From Octopus sinensis (lineage: Eukaryota): a stretch of 64,000 nucleotides of DNA. Positions 4,537-64,000 of the stretch are shown here, piece by piece (the first letter of the stretch is position 1; each line of letters starts with the position of its first letter). The position numbers and the translations under genes are program-made. The notes beneath the pieces were generated by a model. That model saw only the letters and a list, made by a program, of their open reading frames with translations. It was not told where the DNA came from and made no database searches. The DNA lies in the NCBI RefSeq assembly GCF_006345805.1, contig NC_043008.1, forward strand, positions 24,242,001 to 24,306,000. Reading direction: 5' to 3'.

Positions 4537-5169
4537 ATAAACAATAACACAGATGAGTTGTTTCAGACATGTTCTTTATTGATGAATAAAACAATTACAT
4601 CATGTAAAAAGAACATTTAGGATTTTTCACACAAATAGTATATAATGTATATTACTTGTATCTCGGTTATAGCAGAGAAAGTGGATAAAGAATGCTATTC
4701 TTGGCACCCCTTTGCTGCTATTTGGTGGTGCCTTCACTTTGTTTCATCTCATCTTAATTTTATTTAGTCATTCAATCTCTCGTTTATCTTGATGTCATCA
4801 AATGAGGGACAGCCATCTTGTCCCATCGAGTGCTAGATTTTGAGACCCTTTGATATCCTTTAAGTGGATGAGAGTTTTTTCTTTTTTCATTTTCTCTCCT
4901 CTTATATTTCTCTTTTGTTGTTTAATTTATTACAAAGTATATTTACTTTGAAATAGCTTTCCCTATTCAGTCTCTCAGTTATAACTGAGATGGGAGGGTC
5001 AATACACTTTAGGTACTATTTGTGTGAAAAATTCGAAATTTTAGATTTTATTCTTAATACACCTGCAGGAAACGTTTTTTTTTTACATGATGTAATTGTT
5101 TTGTTCATCAATAAAGCACATATTTGAAATAGCTGTAATGACCCTAAGGCCATCTGTGCTATTGTTTAT
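4537..5169. repeat. Long imperfect inverted repeat (arms ~4537-4700 and ~4953-5169)
   Basis: Complementary pairs include ATAAACAATAACACAGATG/CATCTGTGCTATTGTTTAT, TTACATCATGTAAAAA/TTTTTACATGATGTAA and TTTTCACACAAATAGTA/TACTATTTGTGTGAAAA. Confidence 0.85.
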
Positions 5170-38109: not shown

Positions 38110-39815
38110 ATTAATGATAGTCTAACAACTAGAAAACCCGTGCTGCAGCTACCGATAACATCAATCGCCGAAGAATATAAAGCAGGAATGGCAAGAACAG
38201 TAATGATGCTAAGGTATTCGAAAGATCAGAACATCCGAGAAAACCCTCCAAATGTACGAACAGGGATGAAATGGAAAGCGGAAGAGGCAGTAGACAGGGC
38301 GATCGGAAAGTTAAGGCACCCCGATATAGTCGGAGCGACATAAGAAGCAAGAGCCGGTCTAGGGTCGCAGAATTTCAAATCATTTTGCATGAGCAGTATA
38401 AAAGAGAGGAAAGACGCAGTGGTGCACGAAGAGAGAAAGGAGGAAGAAGAAAGGCGTAATGTAGACAACAGGAACAGTGCCTGAGATGGAAAGAATATGT
38501 AGTCAGTCGCAGAATCTCAGGGAAGGAACTTTGGGCTTGGGGACAAGCAAGAACATCCTTTCTGATCAAGTCTATCTTCGACGTTTTACCTTCACCGGCA
38601 AATTTAGTCCGGTGGAACACACAAACAGACGAATGTAGATACGGAGAGAAAGCGACGGTGAGACATGTTCTGTCAAACTGCAGGCTAGCACTAGACAGAT
38701 ATACATGGTGTCACAATCAAGTCCTCGGTGGTATAAGCGCAGCACTCAAGGAGAAGATCGAGGGATATAATAGGGGAAAATACCCAAAAGTGGAAAAGCG
38801 CGGAAAAATATACTTCCAGAAGGAGGGAAAAGGACATAAGACCAGGTTTTTAAATAAAATGTACGAGACAGACGAAAGATGGAAAGTATACTGGGAACTG
38901 GCCGCAGATTTGGAAAGACTAAATATTTCCACTCATAAAAACAACAAAAAGACCTGACTTAATCTTATGGAACATAGAACGGAGAATTGGAATTTTGCTA
39001 GCGCTGACATCGTTAATGCAGAACATCGTTAATGCAGAGCAACAGAAGGAGAAGAGGTATGAGAAATTAGTCGAAGAGTGAGGAGAACAGGGATGGATTG
39101 TCGAGTATTACCACCTGGCAGTGGGGGCTAGAGGCTTCATTGAAAGGAAAATAACGACGTTATTTAAAAGAAAGTTTGCATTCTGGAGCTGAGAGCTGAG
39201 AAAAGTAATAAGGAGGGAGTCGAAAAAGCCAGCTTCTGTATATTGCTGAAGCGAGAAGGTCCAAAATGGCTTGAAAGCCACAACATGCCGACTGGGAAAT
39301 AGCGTCGCTAGATGAAGCTGGCTTACACATAAGCAGGATCGCTGATTGACAAGTGAGCCAAGGTAGCGGTCTCGTTCATAGCGACTCCTCCTCTGGTTCG
39401 AAGGTTTGTACCACAAAACAGCTGGTGGGCTCTGGCTGCTGGAAGTGAAACTAACACGACACTGTTGGAAGGTAGGTTTAGAGAGGGCGTGGACTAAAAT
39501 TGCGCGCCCTGCCCCTCCATTGGTCAGTTGAAACTTAGACAGTGTCACGTGACAGTTAGCTGGTGCTGGCTACTGGAGCCTACCGGCGAGTATTTAATGG
39601 GGAATTTGACAGGATGGTCAGTCGTCTGCTGACATTGGTTGACGCTGCACCGAAGAAACCAAAGGGCAGAAGAAAAAAGGAGAAAGAAGAAATGCATTCA
39701 ATACCAGAGCTGAAGACAACTCCGAAAGGAGGACTCCATCACGTCGAAAACGGTAGAGGAGTATGGGCCTAAACCTGACGTGGTTCCTCCTGATGATGCC
39801 TTTAGCCTAGTGTAT
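38110..39815 (+). mobile_element. 5'-truncated, decayed HERO-like RLE LINE (second family) with long 3' UTR
   Basis: LQLPITSIAEEYK, PPNVRTGMKWKAEEAV, FLIKSIFDVLPSPANLVRW, HVLSNCRLAL.RYTWCHNQVL, K.PDLILW and VGARGF. Colinear with, but diverged from, the element at 61090-62272. Confidence 0.88.
39709..39806 (+). ncRNA. Non-circularly permuted hammerhead-like motif (G12 mutated to T)
   Basis: GCTGAAGACA ... GGACTC..CACGTC gaaaac GGTA|GAGGAG tat GGGCC TAAACC t GACGTG g TTCCTC CTGATGA TGCCTTTAGC. Confidence 0.6.
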
Positions 39816-56790: not shown

Positions 56791-57009
56791 ATATATATAT
56801 ATATATATATAAGCATTTTTATAAGGATAAGATCGTTATTTTAAATACCGATCATATCAAGTGGCCAGCATGGAAACAAAAACCACTGCGATGGTATTTT
56901 GACCATATAGCACGTGGAGTTTAGACGTGCAATTAAACCGATCATGTACATACGTAAATATATACGTGTGTATACGTGCGTATATGTAAGTATTCGTACT
57001 ATATATAAT

Positions 57010-57522
57010 GAGAATTATAATGTTAATTATTTAGATGTTAATTTTAATCTAATTACAGGTAAAACACAACCATATCATAAATTTAATGAAAACCTTATAT
57101 ATATATATAAATGTTAATAGTAATCACCCACCATCAATTAAAAAATCGTTGATTAATAATATAAGTAAACGTATATCATTACTTTCTTATGATTTAGAGA
57201 TTTTTAATAAACATGCACCTTATTACAATGAGGCCCTACGAGAGGCAGGTTATAATAGTAATATTAAATTTTTTAATAAAAAGTAAAGATAATAATATTA
57301 ATAATAATTATAATAATCATGTTAGTCATATTAGTAGTAATTATAAAAATAAAAATTAAATTAAAGATAAGACAGATTTTAATATTAATTCAATAAATGT
57401 TAATTATAATTATAAATTTAATTTTAATAATATCATAAAGAAATATAATAATTGTAATGGTAATAATGATAATGGTAATAATAATAATAATAGTAATAAT
57501 AATGGGATTAATTATAATAATC

Positions 57523-57571
<49 letters not shown>

Positions 57572-58500
57572 GAATAAGAATAAGAATAATAATGATAGTA
57601 ATAATAATAATAAGAATAAGAATAAGAATAATATTTGGTTAATTGTTCCTTATGGTGCTCAGGTTAAAACTAACATTATTAAAGAGATTTTAGATATTAT
57701 TGAACAATTCATTCATGATAATCGTAAATAGAAAAATGTTCCTAGTAATAACTTTGGAGAAGGTTATTCTACCACTAATAGTGTAGGCAACATTATTTCT
57801 TCTTTTAACAAATTTAAGCTGAATAATTTTTATAAAAATAAATTTTATAATAATACCAATAATAATAAAGATAAGACACTCATTAACTGTACATGTAGAG
57901 ATAAAACTAAGTGTAAATTTAATAATAAATGTGATTTAAACGATGTAGTGTATAAATGTATAGTTACATCAATTAATGAGAATAATAGGAACAATAATAA
58001 CTTAAACTCAATATATATAGGGTCTACTTCCTCTAAAATAATATTAAGACTCGCGCAGCATATGTATTCATTTAAAAATAAAAACCTAATTAACTCTACA
58101 GGACTTAGCAAATACATTTGGGGGCTTAAATCCCAAAGTATTAAGTATGATTTAAGGTGGGAAATAATAAGTAAGGCCAAATCATATAGTATAGGAGGCA
58201 ATTATTGTTATTTATGTTCAAATGAGTTTAAAGAAATTTTATTCAATGATCATAATAATTTAGTGAATAATTTGGATGAGCGTAAAATAAAATGCAGACA
58301 CAGGTTACTTTACTTATATAATAAATTTCTAGATAAATAATGACTATATCTAAACTCTACTTTGTTCCTAATTTGTGGATATATGTACTAGTATTAATGT
58401 AAAATTTAGTATGTGATTTATAATACTTATTACAGGATTTTATATGTTATATCAAATAAGTAATTTAATATTTTAATAATTTTATAAATATATTACTTAA
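57010..58500 (+). mobile_element. Extremely AT-rich Penelope-like element 3' half with (AAT)n expansions
   Basis: VNYLDVNFNL, NSNHPPSIKKSL, APYYNEAL, VYKC..YIGST..RLAQH..TGLSKYIW, CYLCSNE and CRH. Homologous to 46817-47905. Confidence 0.85.
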
Positions 58501-58528
58501 GAATAGTAGTGTAGTGTTTCCAATTCTT

Positions 58529-58769
58529 TGGATTTGGTTAAAAAGAGACTATGAGCGATGGCTAGAAGAATATTGAGCTTAACTTCATAACCAGCTGATC
58601 TAGCAAGCGGGGCCTCATATCAGTGAGGGGGGGGGCGCATTGATGCCATCGAGAGGTAGGCCCCGAAACGGCGCGCATTCTCTCCTGATGACCCCATACA
58701 CTTGCTGGCTTCCAGTATACGGAGCTTTTGACTGGTAGCATTTGCATGTGCAAGTTGTTTTCAAGACAT
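58529..58769 (+). repeat. Upstream direct repeat (copy of the ORF end plus 3' UTR)
   Basis: TGGATTTGGTTAAAAAGAGAC ... GTTGTTTTCAAGACAT matches 62225-62455 with a few substitutions and a ~10-nt indel. Confidence 0.97.
58600..58708 (+). ncRNA. Permuted hammerhead-like motif, upstream copy (AUC triplet, one stem III mismatch)
   Basis: CTAGCAAG c GGGGCC ... GCCATC|GAGAG gta GGCCCC GAAACGGC gcgcatt CTCTC CTGATGA ... CTTGCTGG. Confidence 0.6.
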
Positions 58770-58799
58770 TTAAGACCTTGTGGTAGGTAACCACTGACA

Positions 58800-58895
58800 A
58801 ACCGGAAAGACGGTTAGGCATCTTGGAAAGACAAGAGGACTGCTCGGAAAGACGAGTGGACAATAGGAAAGACTATCGACATCAGGAAAGACTGG
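58800..58895 (+). promoter_or_regulatory. Array of five hairpins with an invariant G-GAAAGA-C loop in the 5' UTR
   Basis: Stems AACCG/CGGTT, TCTTG/CAAGA, CTGCTCG/CGAGTGG, ATAG/CTAT and TCAG/CTGG, each closing GAAAGA. Confidence 0.85.
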
Positions 58896-61800
58896 CGGAG
58901 GCTGCGGACTTACGATCCTCGCCTTTGTAATATATTGTAACAGAAATAAATGGAAATGACAGCCCCACGATTGACCGAGAGGGGGAAGTCGAGAATCAAT
59001 CAAACCCAGTCAGCACGGGAATGACCTTGGAAACGAATACGATTATTCATTCGAACAGCGAACGAAATGCAAACAACTTTAGATGCAAGCTGTGCTATAG
59101 AACCTTTGCAACTGTGAGAGGCTTGAAGATACATCAGGGAAAGACTTGTGAGAAGAGCACAGAGCAGTGTGGATCGTCAGATCGTAAAACACGTGGCAAA
59201 TCATCCCCGGACTCAAACCACAGCGGATCGATAAATGCTACAGCAGAGACCTCTTCACGGGATGAAACTACAAGTCATGAAACTGGTGCATCGGATAATA
59301 CTCAGAGGAAACCGAGGGTTTTGTGGCCTGCTGCTAATGAGAAAGTGAAATATAAAGAGTTTGAAAACAAGGTTTGTTGGGCTCTTTAGAAAATGACAGT
59401 GTAAATTATCAAGCTCAATATACGATATAGGAAAAGATTTATTTGGAGTAAAAGAGAATATCCGACTAGAGAAAGGAAAGTGTGGACCAAGCAGGAGGAT
59501 CAGAAAAATGCAGCAGTTGAGGAAGGAAAAGTCCAACTTAAGAAAGCGATGGAGATGTGCTGCACTAGATGAGAAACCTGGCCTTGCGCTGCTGTATAAC
59601 GATTTGAAGAGGAAATGTTGTTATGTGGAACGACATATCCGCCGATATGAGCGTCAAAAGGAGAGTAAAAGGACTCGGGGGCAATTTCTGAAGGACCCGT
59701 ACGAGTTTACTAAGAAGCTGTTCACTGAACCGAAGAGTGGTACTTTATCGTGCACAAAAGAAGAACTGGATGCTCATATCAAGGAAACCTACAGCGATCC
59801 GCACCGTAACCAGCCGCTGCCACCTCTACATGGACTAAATTATCTCTCAGGACCTGATATCGAATTCCAGATTGGGGACATCAGGGAGAGAGAGGTGAAA
59901 TACTTCTTAAGAAAAGCTAGAGCAAAGAGTGCCCCAGGAGGTGATGGCGTCTCATATAAAGTCTACAAGTACTGCAATCGTCTGCGAAAGAAGCTCTTCG
60001 TCCTACTCCGACAACTGTGGCGCGAGGAGACTATAGTAGAGGATTGGTGTAAGGCAGAAGGTATATACCTGCCGAAAGAGGCCAATGCAAAGACCATAAA
60101 ACAGTTTAGGCCGATATCCTTATTGAATGTGGGAAATTCTGTCGAGGAGAACAGTGACATATTTATAGAGTAACGGATATGTTGATGAATCTGTTCAAAA
60201 GGCCGGAATCCCCGGGATTCCTGGATGCGTTGAACTCTGTTTTTCGATTTGGAAAGCGATCCAAGACTCCAAACGGAACAGGAAAAGTCTGAACGTAGTA
60301 TGGCTCGACCTAGCTAACGCGTATGGTTCAGTGCCACACGAATTACTAATAACAGTCATGGACCACTTCTACATTCCTGACAAAGTGATCAGAATAATGA
60401 GGATGTACTATGACAGTTTCGAAATGAGGTTTACAGCTGGAGGTTTTACAACAGATTGGCACCGATTGGAGATTGGCATTGCTGCTGGCTGTACAATATA
60501 TGTCACGTGGTTTATCTTAGTCATGGAAATGATTTTGAAAGGTGTAGATTTTTCGGAACAAATCGCCCATATACAATCGCCTAAGAAAGCCTTCATGGAT
60601 GACGTGAAACCTCTAGCTACAGATAAACAAATCATGCAGAATGCCCTCTTGAGATTAGACGAACTTGTGAGGTGGTCAAGGATGCGATTTAAAGCAAATA
60701 AGTCGCGTAGTCTGACATTTGTTAAGGGAGTGCAGAAAGAATTTAAGTTTCGAATATCTGAAGAAAGCATTCCAACAGTCAAGGAAGAGCCCGTCAAGAG
60801 CTTGGGACGAGTATACGCTGGAACATTGTCAGACAGAAGTCGTGGGATTGAAATTATGAAACAGGCCGAGGCTGGGTTATCAGCGATTGATAATTCGAAG
60901 TTACCAGGTAACTATAAAATTTGGTGCTTGCAGTTCGGCTTGTACCCGCGACTTGCGTGGCCACTTTTAATATACGAGGTAGCATTGTCACGAGTTGAAA
61001 TCATAGAACAAAAATGTAATGTGTTCATTAGGAAGTGGCTAGGCCTACCTCGTATGTTGAACAGTTCAGCTCTTTATCGGAAAAGAGGTTCGTTGCAGCT
61101 ACCAATAGCATCAATAGTCGAAATATATAAGCTGGGGAAGATACGGACGGTCATGATGCTAAGAGAACCGAAGGATATGGAAATCAGGCGTAACCCACCA
61201 GAGGTGAAAACATCCAGGGAGTGGAAAGCAGAAGCAGAAACTGACGACGTCTTGTCTTCTCTTATACACAGAGATATGGTGGGTGCAACGCAGAACCATC
61301 GGAAAGGACTTGGTTTTGGCGCAGATCAGTTCAGACCGTTTGCAAGCATGATGCAGAGTGAACGCAGATCTGTTGTTAGCAACAGCGTCAAAACAAGAGA
61401 AGCAGAGAGAAGAGAGCTTCATTCGATCCGATGTTTTCATCAAGGTCAGATGACGAGATGGGAAGAACATGTTGTTGAGAGGAAGATAAGTTAGGATGAG
61501 ATGTGGAAATGGACGACATCTCGGCTGAATTTCCTGATTCGTTTATCTTATGATGTTTTGCCATCACCTACGAATCTAGTAAGATGGAATGTCTCAGAGA
61601 ATGACATCTGCAAATGTGGAAAGGTCGGTACACTGAAACATATTCTTTCCAACTGTTCATTAGCATTGAACAGGTATACACGGAGGCACAACTTGGTCCT
61701 TATGGTTATCTTCAATGCTATAAAGAACCAAATTCATCTCAACAACACAAAAAAACCGTTAAAAGTACCATCTAGAGATTTCGTTACCTTCGTGCGACCA

Positions 61801-62224
61801 GGTCAGCGGATCCGTTTCAAGAAGATCAAGAAACTTCCTGAGAGAAATGAAAAGTGGAACGGCTATTGGGAGGTAACTGCAGATTTACCTGGGTGCCAAG
61901 TTTTCTTTCCCATCCCAGTTACGAAAAAACCAGATATTTTGATGTGCTGTGAAAGAAAGAGAGTTGTAAATATAGTCGAGCTAACGGTTCCTCAAGAAGA
62001 TAATATGGACGCCGCTCGGGCTCGAAAATTGAACCGTTAATATAAACCTCCTCGAGGAATGTCAAGACGCAGGCTGGAAAACGGAACGTTTTCCAATCCA
62101 AGTCGGATGTAAAGGGTTCGTTGGACACCGTGTGAGACGACCGTTGTTATCGCTAGGCCTAACTCATCGTAAAGTCAATACCACCATGACTGATATCCAA
62201 TCTACAGTGGAGAAGGCTAGCCAC

Positions 62225-62455
62225 TGGATTTGGTTAAAAAGAGACAATGAGCGATGGCTAGAAGAATATTGAACTTAAATTCATAACCAGCTGATCCAGC
62301 AAGCGGGGCCTCATATCGGGGCGCATTGATGCCGTCGAGAGGTAGGCCCCGAAACGGCGCGCATTCTCTCCTGATGACCCAATACACTTGCTGGCTTCCG
62401 GTATACGGAGCTTTTGACTGGTAGCACTTGCATGTGCAAGTTGTTTTCAAGACAT
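62225..62455 (+). repeat. Downstream direct repeat
   Basis: Matches 58529-58769. Confidence 0.97.
62296..62394 (+). ncRNA. Permuted hammerhead-like motif, downstream copy with intact core
   Basis: CCAGCAAG c GGGGCC ... GCCGTC|GAGAG gta GGCCCC GAAACGGC gcgcatt CTCTC CTGATGA cccaataca CTTGCTGG. Confidence 0.7.
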
Positions 62456-64000
62456 CGACATATGAGGTTTTGTATTAGTCAATAAAAGTTATAAAATATT
62501 TTTTATTTACTTAAAGTTAGGTTATATTTAGATGTTTATTATATTACTAAATATTTAATGGTTTTAATGAATATAGATTATATGAAGGTTTTAATTTTGA
62601 ATGTATAGGACAATAATCTTTTCTTTATGTAATGTTTTTTAAAATGATAATTTATTCAATTATAGAACGATGTATTTGATCTATAGATAAATTAATTTAC
62701 CTATATAAGTAGTTTAATTTATTATTTTGAGTATTAATATGATATGATATATAATATAAATATATATTTATCTTATACTAGAGTTAAGTTTATATTTTGT
62801 TATAGTTTTGTTATAAATTTGTTAAATTAATCAATTTATATGTATTTTCTATATATTTGAAGTAGATTTATTTAGATGTTTATTTAATTAATATTATTTA
62901 ATGAACGTTATTAGAATATAGTTTTTTATATTAATTTTGTTCATATTAAAGATAATGCTTGAATTACTACTGAATTAATTTTGAATGTGTCTAATGGTTA
63001 TTTTTTAATTTTTTATTTATATTAATTTGTCTACTACGTAATTTTTTTATATAAATTAATTAAATCTTATATGATTTTTAGAGTATACACAGTAATTGGT
63101 AGTTATATTAATTATTTAATATTGAGTATTAAGTATAATTTATTGTAGTTATTTTAATAATAAATCTTATAGTATATAGTGGTTTTATTCTATAATCGTG
63201 ACTTCATTCTATTTACATTTATTGATAAATATAGCTGTTTCCATTGACAATATTTATTCACAATTTTCATTGATAAAATATATTCGTAGTTTTTCATTGT
63301 TAAAAGAATTCTTCATCTATTTATTCTATTTCTGTTAATAACGTAATTCCACGAGTATTCTTATAAACGCTTAAAATACGTTTTCCGTTTTAAAAGTTTA
63401 CTTCATCATACAGCCTTGGAAAGCTAAGTAATCTATTTCTATTTAAGATTTTAAAATTTAAAAGTTTTAAAATATTTTAATAAGTCTTATTGTATTTGAT
63501 TGTTATGTAATGATTTAGTTGTTGAAATTATGTATATAATTATGAGATTTTAACTCTACATTATTTGTAAGATATTACTTAGCCAAAGATATATATATAG
63601 ATCGTTAATAGTTATACGATTTTTTAAAAGTTAGGTTTCTGGTTTATAGTTTGATTTTAATCTTTAATTTTTTAATGTATCTCATAATTATATTATATTA
63701 ATATTTAATATTCATGTAATTAGTATTGGATTAATTAATTAATTTATTTTTCTTTATATGTCTATACATTTATTGATAGCGTAAATTTTAGTTTTTAATC
63801 ACTATATTTGTTGATAGTAATTTAGTCATTATTTTTAAATATTTTATAATTATTACATGTGTACTTAAATCTAAAATATGAATAATGACTATTTAGTTAA
63901 ATAATTTGGTAATTCAATGTTTGGACTATAACTGAGTTAAGGATATTTGGGAGTTTATTATGTTTTTTTAAGCCATATTATATATACATATATATTCATA
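62456..64000. other. Extremely AT-rich low-complexity tract, possibly the continuation of the PLE 3' region split by the HERO insertion
   Basis: Composition matches 58340-58528; no ORFs in the track. Confidence 0.45.

Follow-up and report, generated by a model that had tools for sequence, protein, structure and literature searches.

Within a 64,000-nucleotide (nt) stretch of the Octopus sinensis genome (contig NC_043008.1, positions 24,242,001 to 24,306,000; henceforth the window, numbered from its first letter), a copy of a retrotransposon that lacks long terminal repeats (a non-LTR element) occupies positions 58529–62455, and its features described here all lie on the forward (+) strand. 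The copy comprises a partial unit followed by a full unit, 58770–62455, of a HERO-like element from the R2 group, i.e., the group with a restriction-like endonuclease (RLE). Beginning 26 nt inside the 5′ start of this unit lies an array of five phased hairpins that share the loop GAAAGA and are closed by five different stems. From its counterparts in a second family of the same genome and in distant relatives, we propose that it represents a type of cis-acting, protein-binding hairpin array that is new in form and conserved across a wide group of animal retrotransposons. No published description of such an array was found in the literature searched, most subscription journals being outside our reach.

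The reading frame of this copy is broken. Five frame pieces (58931–62272) make up the open reading frame (ORF) of the element, with an N-terminal zinc finger, a reverse transcriptase (RT) domain, and CCHC and PD..D/E..K endonuclease motifs. Pfam placed RVT_1 within 60169–61494 (E=1.9e-11) and gave a weak C2H2 match at the N-terminus. The CCHC and PD..D/E..K motifs were seen by eye in the translation of 61495–62040 (CKCGKVGTLKHILSNC; KKPDIL...VELTVPQEDN), which matched no Pfam model and was read with a pattern that we take to be that of the endonuclease. The element protein has 401 homologues of 800–2200 amino acids; full-length ones measure 1000–1200 amino acids, and the best is 69% identical. 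With a single ORF that contains an RT domain, the element appears to have the layout of the R2 group as defined in the available text of PMC3636483. The same text describes HERO elements as not site-specific, and copies of the window element likewise lie on many chromosomes within unrelated flanks, with no target-site specificity. The only named homologues are from Branchiostoma and Diadema (44–45% identity), two taxa among those for which HERO elements are listed in the accessible part of PMC7650587. The HERO label is a provisional one.

Each hairpin of the array is built around the octamer GGAAAGAC, which occurs at 58804, 58825, 58846, 58866, and 58885 (array span 58804–58892), with GAAAGA loops starting at 58805, 58826, 58847, 58867, and 58886. 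A first-pass annotation made from the letters of the window had counted five octamers and placed the loops at these positions, and the five stems it drew were also borne out as written. Flanking each octamer is its own inverted repeat of 4–7 bp. A hairpin with a different loop, GTGGT-AGGTA-ACCAC (58780–58794), precedes unit 1 (58795–58815), in which the spacer TGACA leads into the stem AACCG/CGGTT around the loop at 58805–58810. Unit 2 (58821–58836) has the stem TCTTG/CAAGA and its loop at 58826–58831. The third unit (58837–58859) opens with the spacer GGA and has the longest stem, CTGCTCG/CGAGTGG, with two G.U pairs in this copy and the loop at 58847–58852. Unit 4 (58860–58876) combines the spacer ACA (GGACA when read with the end of unit 3) with the stem ATAG/CTAT and a loop at 58867–58872, and unit 5 (58877–58895) the spacer CGACA with the stem TCAG/CTGG, which includes one G.U pair, and a loop at 58886–58891.

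Neither the octamers nor the stems are expected by chance. The octamer occurs 10 times in the window compared to 1.23 expected, a number reached in none of 100 shuffles. When the five octamers were kept fixed and all other letters of 58770–58930 were shuffled, stems of at least 4 bp at all five sites did not arise in any of 200,000 trials. All five hairpins form in the RNA structure of lowest predicted energy for 58790–58905 (z = -3.36), and 2 of 200 shuffled sequences folded equally well. Four octamers outside the element (38408, 38912, 53833, and, on the minus strand, 54112) have a closing G-C pair only and no stem. A sixth octamer of the element, within a CAGG/CTTG hairpin at 59135–59148, lies in the ORF and encodes QGKTC of the zinc finger; this hairpin may be a chance product of the encoded peptide. 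Searching 57000–64000 on both strands with the covariance models of Rfam 15 gave no match at E<=1. Tandem Repeats Finder reported 2.5 loose copies at 82% match with a loose 19-nt period, and we therefore do not regard the array as a plain tandem duplication. A simple tandem repeat or minisatellite was also rejected on the grounds that the arms of the units are unrelated.

Copies of the window family (family A) were collected from the 2.7-Gb genome of O. sinensis using 58700–58960 as query, which returned more than 1500 candidate matches, 40 of which were scored at 82–100% identity. Thirty copies were aligned, and they are too alike for a covariation test. All five GAAAGA loops are kept in 20 of the 30. 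Several differences fall within the stems: most copies have C at 58857 and at 58882, each turning a G.U of this copy into a G-C pair, and in the commonest subfamily T at 58896 extends the stem of unit 5 to 6 bp (CACCAG/CTGGTG). An older subfamily has ATGG/CTAT in unit 4, with a + strand G.U where this copy has A-U. Recombination between octamers shifts the number of units, as in one copy with three units (L084) and another with one fewer (L028). The array of one family-A copy (L004) folds with z = -6.81, equalled by none of 200 shuffles. Arrays are also present on contigs filed under other organism labels; they are near-identical to the copies of the own genome and added little to the covariation test. 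The first-pass annotation had called for a check of loop and hairpin number across family copies, and both proved to be kept, with 3–6 units when distant relatives are included.

A second family in the same genome (family B), with an RT about 55% identical to that of the window element, carries three phased units about 110 nt upstream of its ATG: GCAGG-GAAAGA-CTTGC, ATCC-A-GAAAGA-G-GGAT, and AAGCG-GAGAGA-CGCTT. They are spaced by 21 and 20 nt, and TGAC stands before each. The leaders of families A and B are alignable only through the GTGGT..ACCAC hairpin, the GAC spacers, and the loops; the hairpin at 58780–58794 is homologous in this alignment to a family-B hairpin located before the unit boundary. 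For a covariation test, the five A and three B units were chosen by motif and phase only, leaving out one out-of-phase, stemless GAAAGA (L138:1627). In this set, 85.4% of the cells are paired compared to 53.3% (sd 5.4) in shuffles, none of 500 being as high; 16 cells are changed on both sides compared to 5.7 expected, and slid controls gave 27–53% paired. As a separate observation, a GAAAGA hairpin with the stem ACTTG/CAAGT lies in the endonuclease region of eight family-B loci (e.g., L070, oriented 4586–4601), and other loci carry CTTG/CAAG and ATTTG/CAAGT variants of it.

More distant relatives were sought by scanning metagenome contigs by protein alignment, which yielded 80 loci, and the 45 with a match reaching the protein N-terminus were examined. 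A chain was defined as two or more hairpins whose stems have at least 4 bp, whose loops are 6–9 nt long and read GA..AG[AGT] or a close variant, and whose centres are 17–24 nt apart. Such chains occur in 11 of 42 upstream regions in sense and in none of the 42 in antisense, and in 3 of 107 ORF windows in sense compared to 0/107 in antisense. Of the three ORF-window chains, two (L253, L262) are clearly additional arrays of the type seen at locus L201, and a four-unit array at L198 that the chain filter had missed was seen by eye. Arrays are present in at least 12 metagenome relatives, and the array-bearing loci have 38–60% RT identity to the window element. They follow a common design: a TGAC(N) spacer, a stem of 4–7 bp, a GAAAGA-like loop, and the return stem, repeated 3–6 times with a period of 19–22 nt. 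Loops in the relatives read GAAAGA, GAGAGA, GAAAGG, GAAAGU, GACAGA, CAGAGA, GAUAGA, GAAUAGA, or GAACAGA, and a GGGNY-AGCA-RCCC hairpin usually follows the array. The array always lies on the sense strand, between the unit 5′ start and the start codon.

Twenty-six hexaloop units from 10 lineages were aligned, all but unit B2 having been picked with a stem filter and their inner pairs thus being paired by construction, and twelve units with 7-nt loops being left out; in this set 84.6% of cells are paired compared to 49.9% in shuffles (0/500 as high), with 56 double changes compared to 19.8 expected. A less biased measure is a count of those GA[AG]AGA sites whose stem has 4 bp or more, which amount to 9/33 in upstream sense sequence and 11/315 in ORF sense sequence. 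The corresponding values are 1/26 and 4/363 for the reversed motif and 1/20 and 0/45 for the antisense strand. When all upstream-region hairpins with 4 bp or more in the stem are counted, the hexaloop seen most often is GAAAGA (7). Seven arrays of relatives fold with z-scores of -4.22, -4.18, -2.77, -2.72, -1.28, -1.21, and +0.48. G.U pairs outnumber A.C pairs 7 to 2 in the stems of the 26 units, and this excess, together with the subfamily changes that involve G.U, weakly favours sense-strand RNA over the complementary DNA (cDNA) strand as the form in which the hairpins act. In the two families and the at least 12 distant relatives, stems covary while loops and GAC spacers stay constant, which supports the earlier description of the array as internal covariation rather than simple tandem duplication. 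The alignments show selection that has evidently kept the loops and GAC spacers and let the stems drift.

The position of the array relative to the ends of the element bears on the form of its RNA. The partial unit upstream of the array (58529–58769) is the element's own 3′ end, containing the last ~15 ORF codons and the module of the 3′ untranslated region (UTR); it is 92.5% identical to 62225–62455, where the full unit ends with the same 3′ UTR module. The repeat formed with this 3′ copy stops at 58769/62455; elsewhere, the tail matches of other copies stop at 62454/62455, and raw RNA reads have loose ends at 58768/58769. From the repeat ends and the loose read ends, the repeat unit is therefore 58770–62455. 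Its 5′ start at 58770 is, seen from the other side, also the end point of 5′-truncated copies. Loose read ends before 58529 read ORF 3′ sequence, and those behind 58768/58769 read diverse flanks. The upstream piece is variable at 29 other 5′-bearing loci, with starts at tail coordinates 61490 to about 62432 (about 24 to about 965 nt), and full-length copies consist of a partial unit plus a full unit joined at an invariant junction. Since full-length copies are preceded by a piece of variable length, the sequence is continuous head to tail across the copy end point.

Comparison of the two families points in the same direction. Family A has its copy end point 26 nt ahead of the first TGAC, and family B has it 2–5 nt ahead (four loci, e.g., L066 at about 1268–1272); the GTGGT..ACCAC hairpin stands after the end point in A and before it in B, a displacement of about 50 nt. 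This shift is easy to explain only with a functional template that is continuous across the end point. Two loci of metagenome relatives close on themselves: in L246 the first 92 nt match the last 92 (98.9%) and in L190 the first 111 match the last 111 (100%), both assemblies closing at about 3.7 kb, which would fit tandem or circular templates.

The first-pass annotation had also predicted a ribozyme upstream of the array. That region is a copy of the element's 3′ end and, as stated above, has no Rfam match at E<=1. It holds a conserved module that occurs ~100 nt upstream of each array and reads GGSCCGAAA, 16 to 30 nt, and CUGAUGA. In the window, its core (58663–58691) comprises CCGAAAC at 58663–58669 and CTGATGA at 58685–58691, blocks that are also present in family B and six metagenome relatives. 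The closing helix of the module covaries (GGGG/CCCC in the window, AAGACA/UGUCUU in family B), varies in length from 6 bp (L190) over 7 bp (L246) and 11 bp (L234) to 12 bp (L220), and encloses the GGSCC helix, i.e., the two are nested rather than in the interleaved P1/P2 order. The nested order does not suit a fold like that of the hepatitis delta virus (HDV) ribozyme, whose P1 and P2 interleave in a double pseudoknot, and an attempt to fit such a fold by hand failed. A permuted hammerhead appears to fit the module better than an HDV-like fold. The order of GAAA before CUGAUGA is that of natural permuted hammerheads in the available text of PMC10085705, which treats non-circularly permuted hammerheads (type-SGC and others); the likeness lies in motif order and concerns the neighbouring module, not the array, and the hammerhead is here a candidate by sequence. 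A loop pairing with the pyrimidine stretch before CUGAUGA, sought by eye, was not conserved. Modules were located at 58600–58700 in the window and at L066:1130–1205, L220:103–235, L234:50–175, and L246:3692–3829, and that of L220 offers pseudoknot candidates (CCACCU/AGGUGG, GGGAG/CUCCC). The 3′ copy (62257 region) lacks 10 nt, AGTGAGGGGG, of a hairpin and G-run found at 58622–58631 of the upstream copy.

In its shared loop and freely varying stems, the array resembles protein-binding hairpin arrays of the boxB, iron-responsive element (IRE), and MS2 type. Examples of such sets are the five IREs of the transferrin-receptor mRNA, lambda boxB, the MS2 and PP7 operators, and viral packaging-signal hairpins. 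To our knowledge, every natural case of hairpins with the same loop and different stems is a set of sites for one protein, with the number of sites giving avidity. For this reason we read the array as a multivalent docking platform, next to the copy end point, for a sequence-specific RNA-binding protein, most plausibly the RT-endonuclease of the element itself. That the partner is the element's own protein we put forward tentatively, as a reading that falls somewhat short of probable. The first-pass annotation had likewise suggested a multivalent array bound by the element protein or a host factor, for ribonucleoprotein assembly or cap-independent translation, which is plausible. The array differs from the known sets in its 6–7-nt GAAAGA/GARAGA loop, GAC spacer, phasing of 19–22 nt, and location in the leader of a long interspersed nuclear element (LINE).

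According to the docking-platform reading, the template RNA would be longer than one unit, or circular, and the protein would bind the loops next to an internal start point of target-primed reverse transcription. Loop binding would mark the element's own RNA, giving cis preference, and would position the enzyme, with the number of units (3–6) tuning avidity. The array could thereby play the part of the 5′ protein-binding motif (PBM) of R2. In R2Bm this RNA folds into a pseudoknot; it is one complex fold at the ORF start, not a phased leader array, and no sequence likeness to the array was seen. The likeness is positional, in that both are RNA near the 5′ end of an RLE-type non-LTR element; the R2 protein binds this RNA, which directs the protein's role in integration, according to the available part of PMC6895275, the source of a model in which second-strand cleavage is under its control. 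A further parallel is given by mouse mammary tumour virus (MMTV), where a retroelement RNA has, close to its 5′ end, a loop with single-stranded purines that are involved in the selection of genomic RNA by Gag (PMC8096270, as far as its text was accessible). MMTV differs in being a retrovirus that uses Gag, one loop, and the primer-binding site, whereas the window element is a LINE without Gag and has a repeated unit. The layout of the window copy, an RLE-type LINE with a partial tandem, is Penelope-like: Penelope-like elements also have a variably truncated unit before a full unit and a self-cleaving-type motif in the repeat (available text of PMC4209133), and one starts reverse transcription inside its own RNA (available text of PMC11167929). 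They differ in their GIY-YIG endonuclease and telomerase-like RT, and the accessible parts of PMC4209133 and PMC11167929 mention no such array.

Several observations weigh against the array being a docking platform for the element's own protein. A partner that is conserved among hosts, for instance the ribosome or an initiation factor, would explain loops maintained in many hosts equally well. The distance from the copy end point to CUGAUGA is near-constant, 83 nt in family A and 78 nt in family B, and the end point may thus be set by the 3′ module, not by the array. In two raw RNA runs, depth was 0–1 on the array compared to 20–50 on 58529–58769; no places where many RNA molecules begin were found in these runs, which give no evidence either way. 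The fold of the family-B array is unremarkable (z = -1.69), its centroid still containing three hairpins, and including this one, four of nine arrays fold at z above -2 (L201 -1.28, L206 -1.21, L204 +0.48). Only 12 of the 30 aligned family-A copies have all five stems of at least 4 bp, which is expected from decay but lends no support, and a subfamily (6 of the 30) shares a G>C change at 58854 that creates a C.C mismatch beside the closing pair of unit 3. No array was found in 30 of the 42 upstream regions of relatives, some of whose contigs are cut short, and the six most distant loci (31–33% identity) seem to be without one.

The main alternative, possible though on the whole doubtful, is a role in cap-independent translation, with the array recruiting the small ribosomal subunit or an initiation factor to an RNA left uncapped or circular by ribozyme cleavage. 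Recruitment could be direct, occur via a host loop-binding protein, or proceed via N6-methyladenosine (m6A) at GAC/DRACH, with the start about 70–100 nt downstream. The array always lies in the leader, upstream of the ORF start, at a distance of 70 nt (family A), about 73 nt (B), or 64–100 nt (L202 and L206). An uncapped or circular RNA would be plausible given the hammerhead-like core upstream and the copies of more than one unit, and loops that are constant across hosts fit a conserved host partner. The start region of the ORF (58950–58969) also speaks for this role. Two out-of-frame ATGs, at 58950 and 58956, stand between the array and the conserved start at 58967–58969 in family A; the first ATG had been annotated at 58949 and actually lies at 58950, out of frame with the ORF. 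Proteins of relatives start M-x-DREGG, and at the conserved start this copy has no ATG. Of four runs, just one has ATG there in the larger part of its depth (place 58968), and in the other three most depth does not show it. Four loci (L004, L201, L220, L246) have no in-frame ATG before ..ERGG..; these are the only ones used from an automated start-codon survey that took a wrong motif or frame in several loci. Upstream ATGs would, however, also impede ribosomes that land on the array and scan. Purine-rich, A-rich sequences can act as modules of internal ribosome entry sites (IRESs), but we know of no IRES that is built of repeated same-loop hairpins. Moreover, GAAAGA-type hairpins occur in ORFs as well, at 59135–59148, in the eight family-B loci, and in the counts above (11/315 compared to 4/363 in the control). 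In favour of a translation role, R2 RNA is described as being translated by an IRES-type mechanism after ribozyme cleavage in the available text of PMC7650587, which cites Ruminski 2011.

Around the start region, a few features stand on their own. An upstream frame of 24 codons begins with the two out-of-frame ATGs and overlaps the conserved start. A motif CCCCC..(C)CGAGAGGGGG at the ORF start (58960–58985) is kept across lineages (L246 ~330–360, L201 ~2715–2745, L220 ~515–550, L234 ~400–425) and is apparently read in different frames, as DREG in the window element and as PERGG in L246; this hints at a constraint on the RNA. Some database proteins of relatives extend into the leader, and their N-termini read like translated octamers, with GKT, RKD, and WKD seven residues apart in P0003, P0006, P0018, and P0030, for example; this is no more than a soft hint.

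As a related but unlikely proposal, the array could be a loading site, or origin, for target-primed reverse transcription inside a circular RNA made by the element's permuted hammerhead, on which the enzyme would round the circle and copy more than one unit. If this is true, the element would retrotranspose in a rolling-circle cycle, and its RNA would carry a multivalent landmark dedicated to this purpose beside the start point.

A host RNA-binding protein might instead bind the array for a different purpose, such as exporting the RNA from the nucleus, localising it, shielding an uncapped 5′ end from exonuclease, or evading silencing. This shares the structural evidence from shuffles, covariation, and chains, and relatives that come from unrelated samples have retained the loops and the GAC spacer. 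We regard it as quite unlikely: no particular host factor is indicated, and, should the upstream ribozyme cut, the array would lie at least 150 nt from the 5′ end of the RNA and would not serve as a cap there.

Function at the level of DNA or minus-strand cDNA, as phased transcription-factor sites of an internal promoter or as hairpins of first-strand cDNA, is very improbable. The period of 19–21 bp corresponds to about two turns of B-DNA, the array lies at the unit 5′ start, where LINE internal promoters lie, and its GGAA and TGAC sequences resemble what we take to be ETS and AP-1 half sites. Binding to duplex DNA, however, gives no reason for a covarying inverted repeat around each site, the loop variants GAGAGA and CAGAGA have no GGAA, and the 7 to 2 ratio of + strand G.U to A.C weakly disfavours the minus strand. 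A reading of the array as a by-product without function, left by the decay of a minisatellite with a palindromic 20-nt unit, is already disfavoured and scarcely credible, since the loose 19-nt period, the change of unit number by unequal recombination (L084, L028), and the existence of unrelated genomic 21-bp satellites with GGAAAGAC are set against stems that are unrelated between units yet each self-complementary, a design that persists at 38–60% RT identity while the remaining leader is unalignable, and specificity for the sense strand and the leader.

The array bears on how early-branching LINEs choose their own RNA, translate without a cap, and set the start of copying, for which R2 is the main known case. 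This RNA element is short and easy to mutate, and sequence searches can be made for it as a GAC spacer plus a GAAAGA-type hairpin in 3–6 repeats. As such, it provides a handle for identifying a binding partner, for distinguishing cis preference from internal ribosome entry, and for asking whether the template is circular or head-to-tail. A natural array this compact, with the same loop in its hairpins, may also find use as an RNA tag.

Queries of the O. sinensis genome with three database proteins (P0030, P0023, P0050) returned only the window family and the ~55% identical family-B group; P0030 itself is absent from this genome, where its best identity is 59–68%. Five internally deleted copies (L013, L015, L019, L024, L026) keep the array leader and the 3′ end, and their breakpoints all differ. 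The deletion junction of L024 recurs at no fewer than seven other places at 78–99% identity, including a nearby inverted duplicate, from which it follows that the deleted form has itself been copied; four of these places were inspected and are 5′-truncated, without an array. That of L019 was found once among 40 scored of 1330 candidates. On contig C18, at least nine near-identical copies between 3.78 and 5.16 Mb share the same upstream start (tail coordinate 62105) and probably form a segmental or higher-order repeat, not a set of independent insertions. Elsewhere in the window, 61094–61234 is weakly similar to 38144–38284 (68% over 141 nt), with two isolated GGAAAGAC nearby, at 38408 and 38912, and 38144–38284 may be a fragment of another RT element.

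A genome-wide pattern search for three GGAAAGAC gave 137 matches compared to 25 for a reversed control. Matches outside family A are satellites with no RT within about 4 kb. Two of these have a 21-bp unit in which GGAAAGAC stands between inverted repeats: L061 (C25:16437895–16438552) with 46 units of GGAAAGACTTGTGCGCACAAA, and L062 (C19:45765243–45765334) with five units of GGAAAGACTGCACTTTTTGCA. Both may be expanded single array units, or may have arisen by chance.

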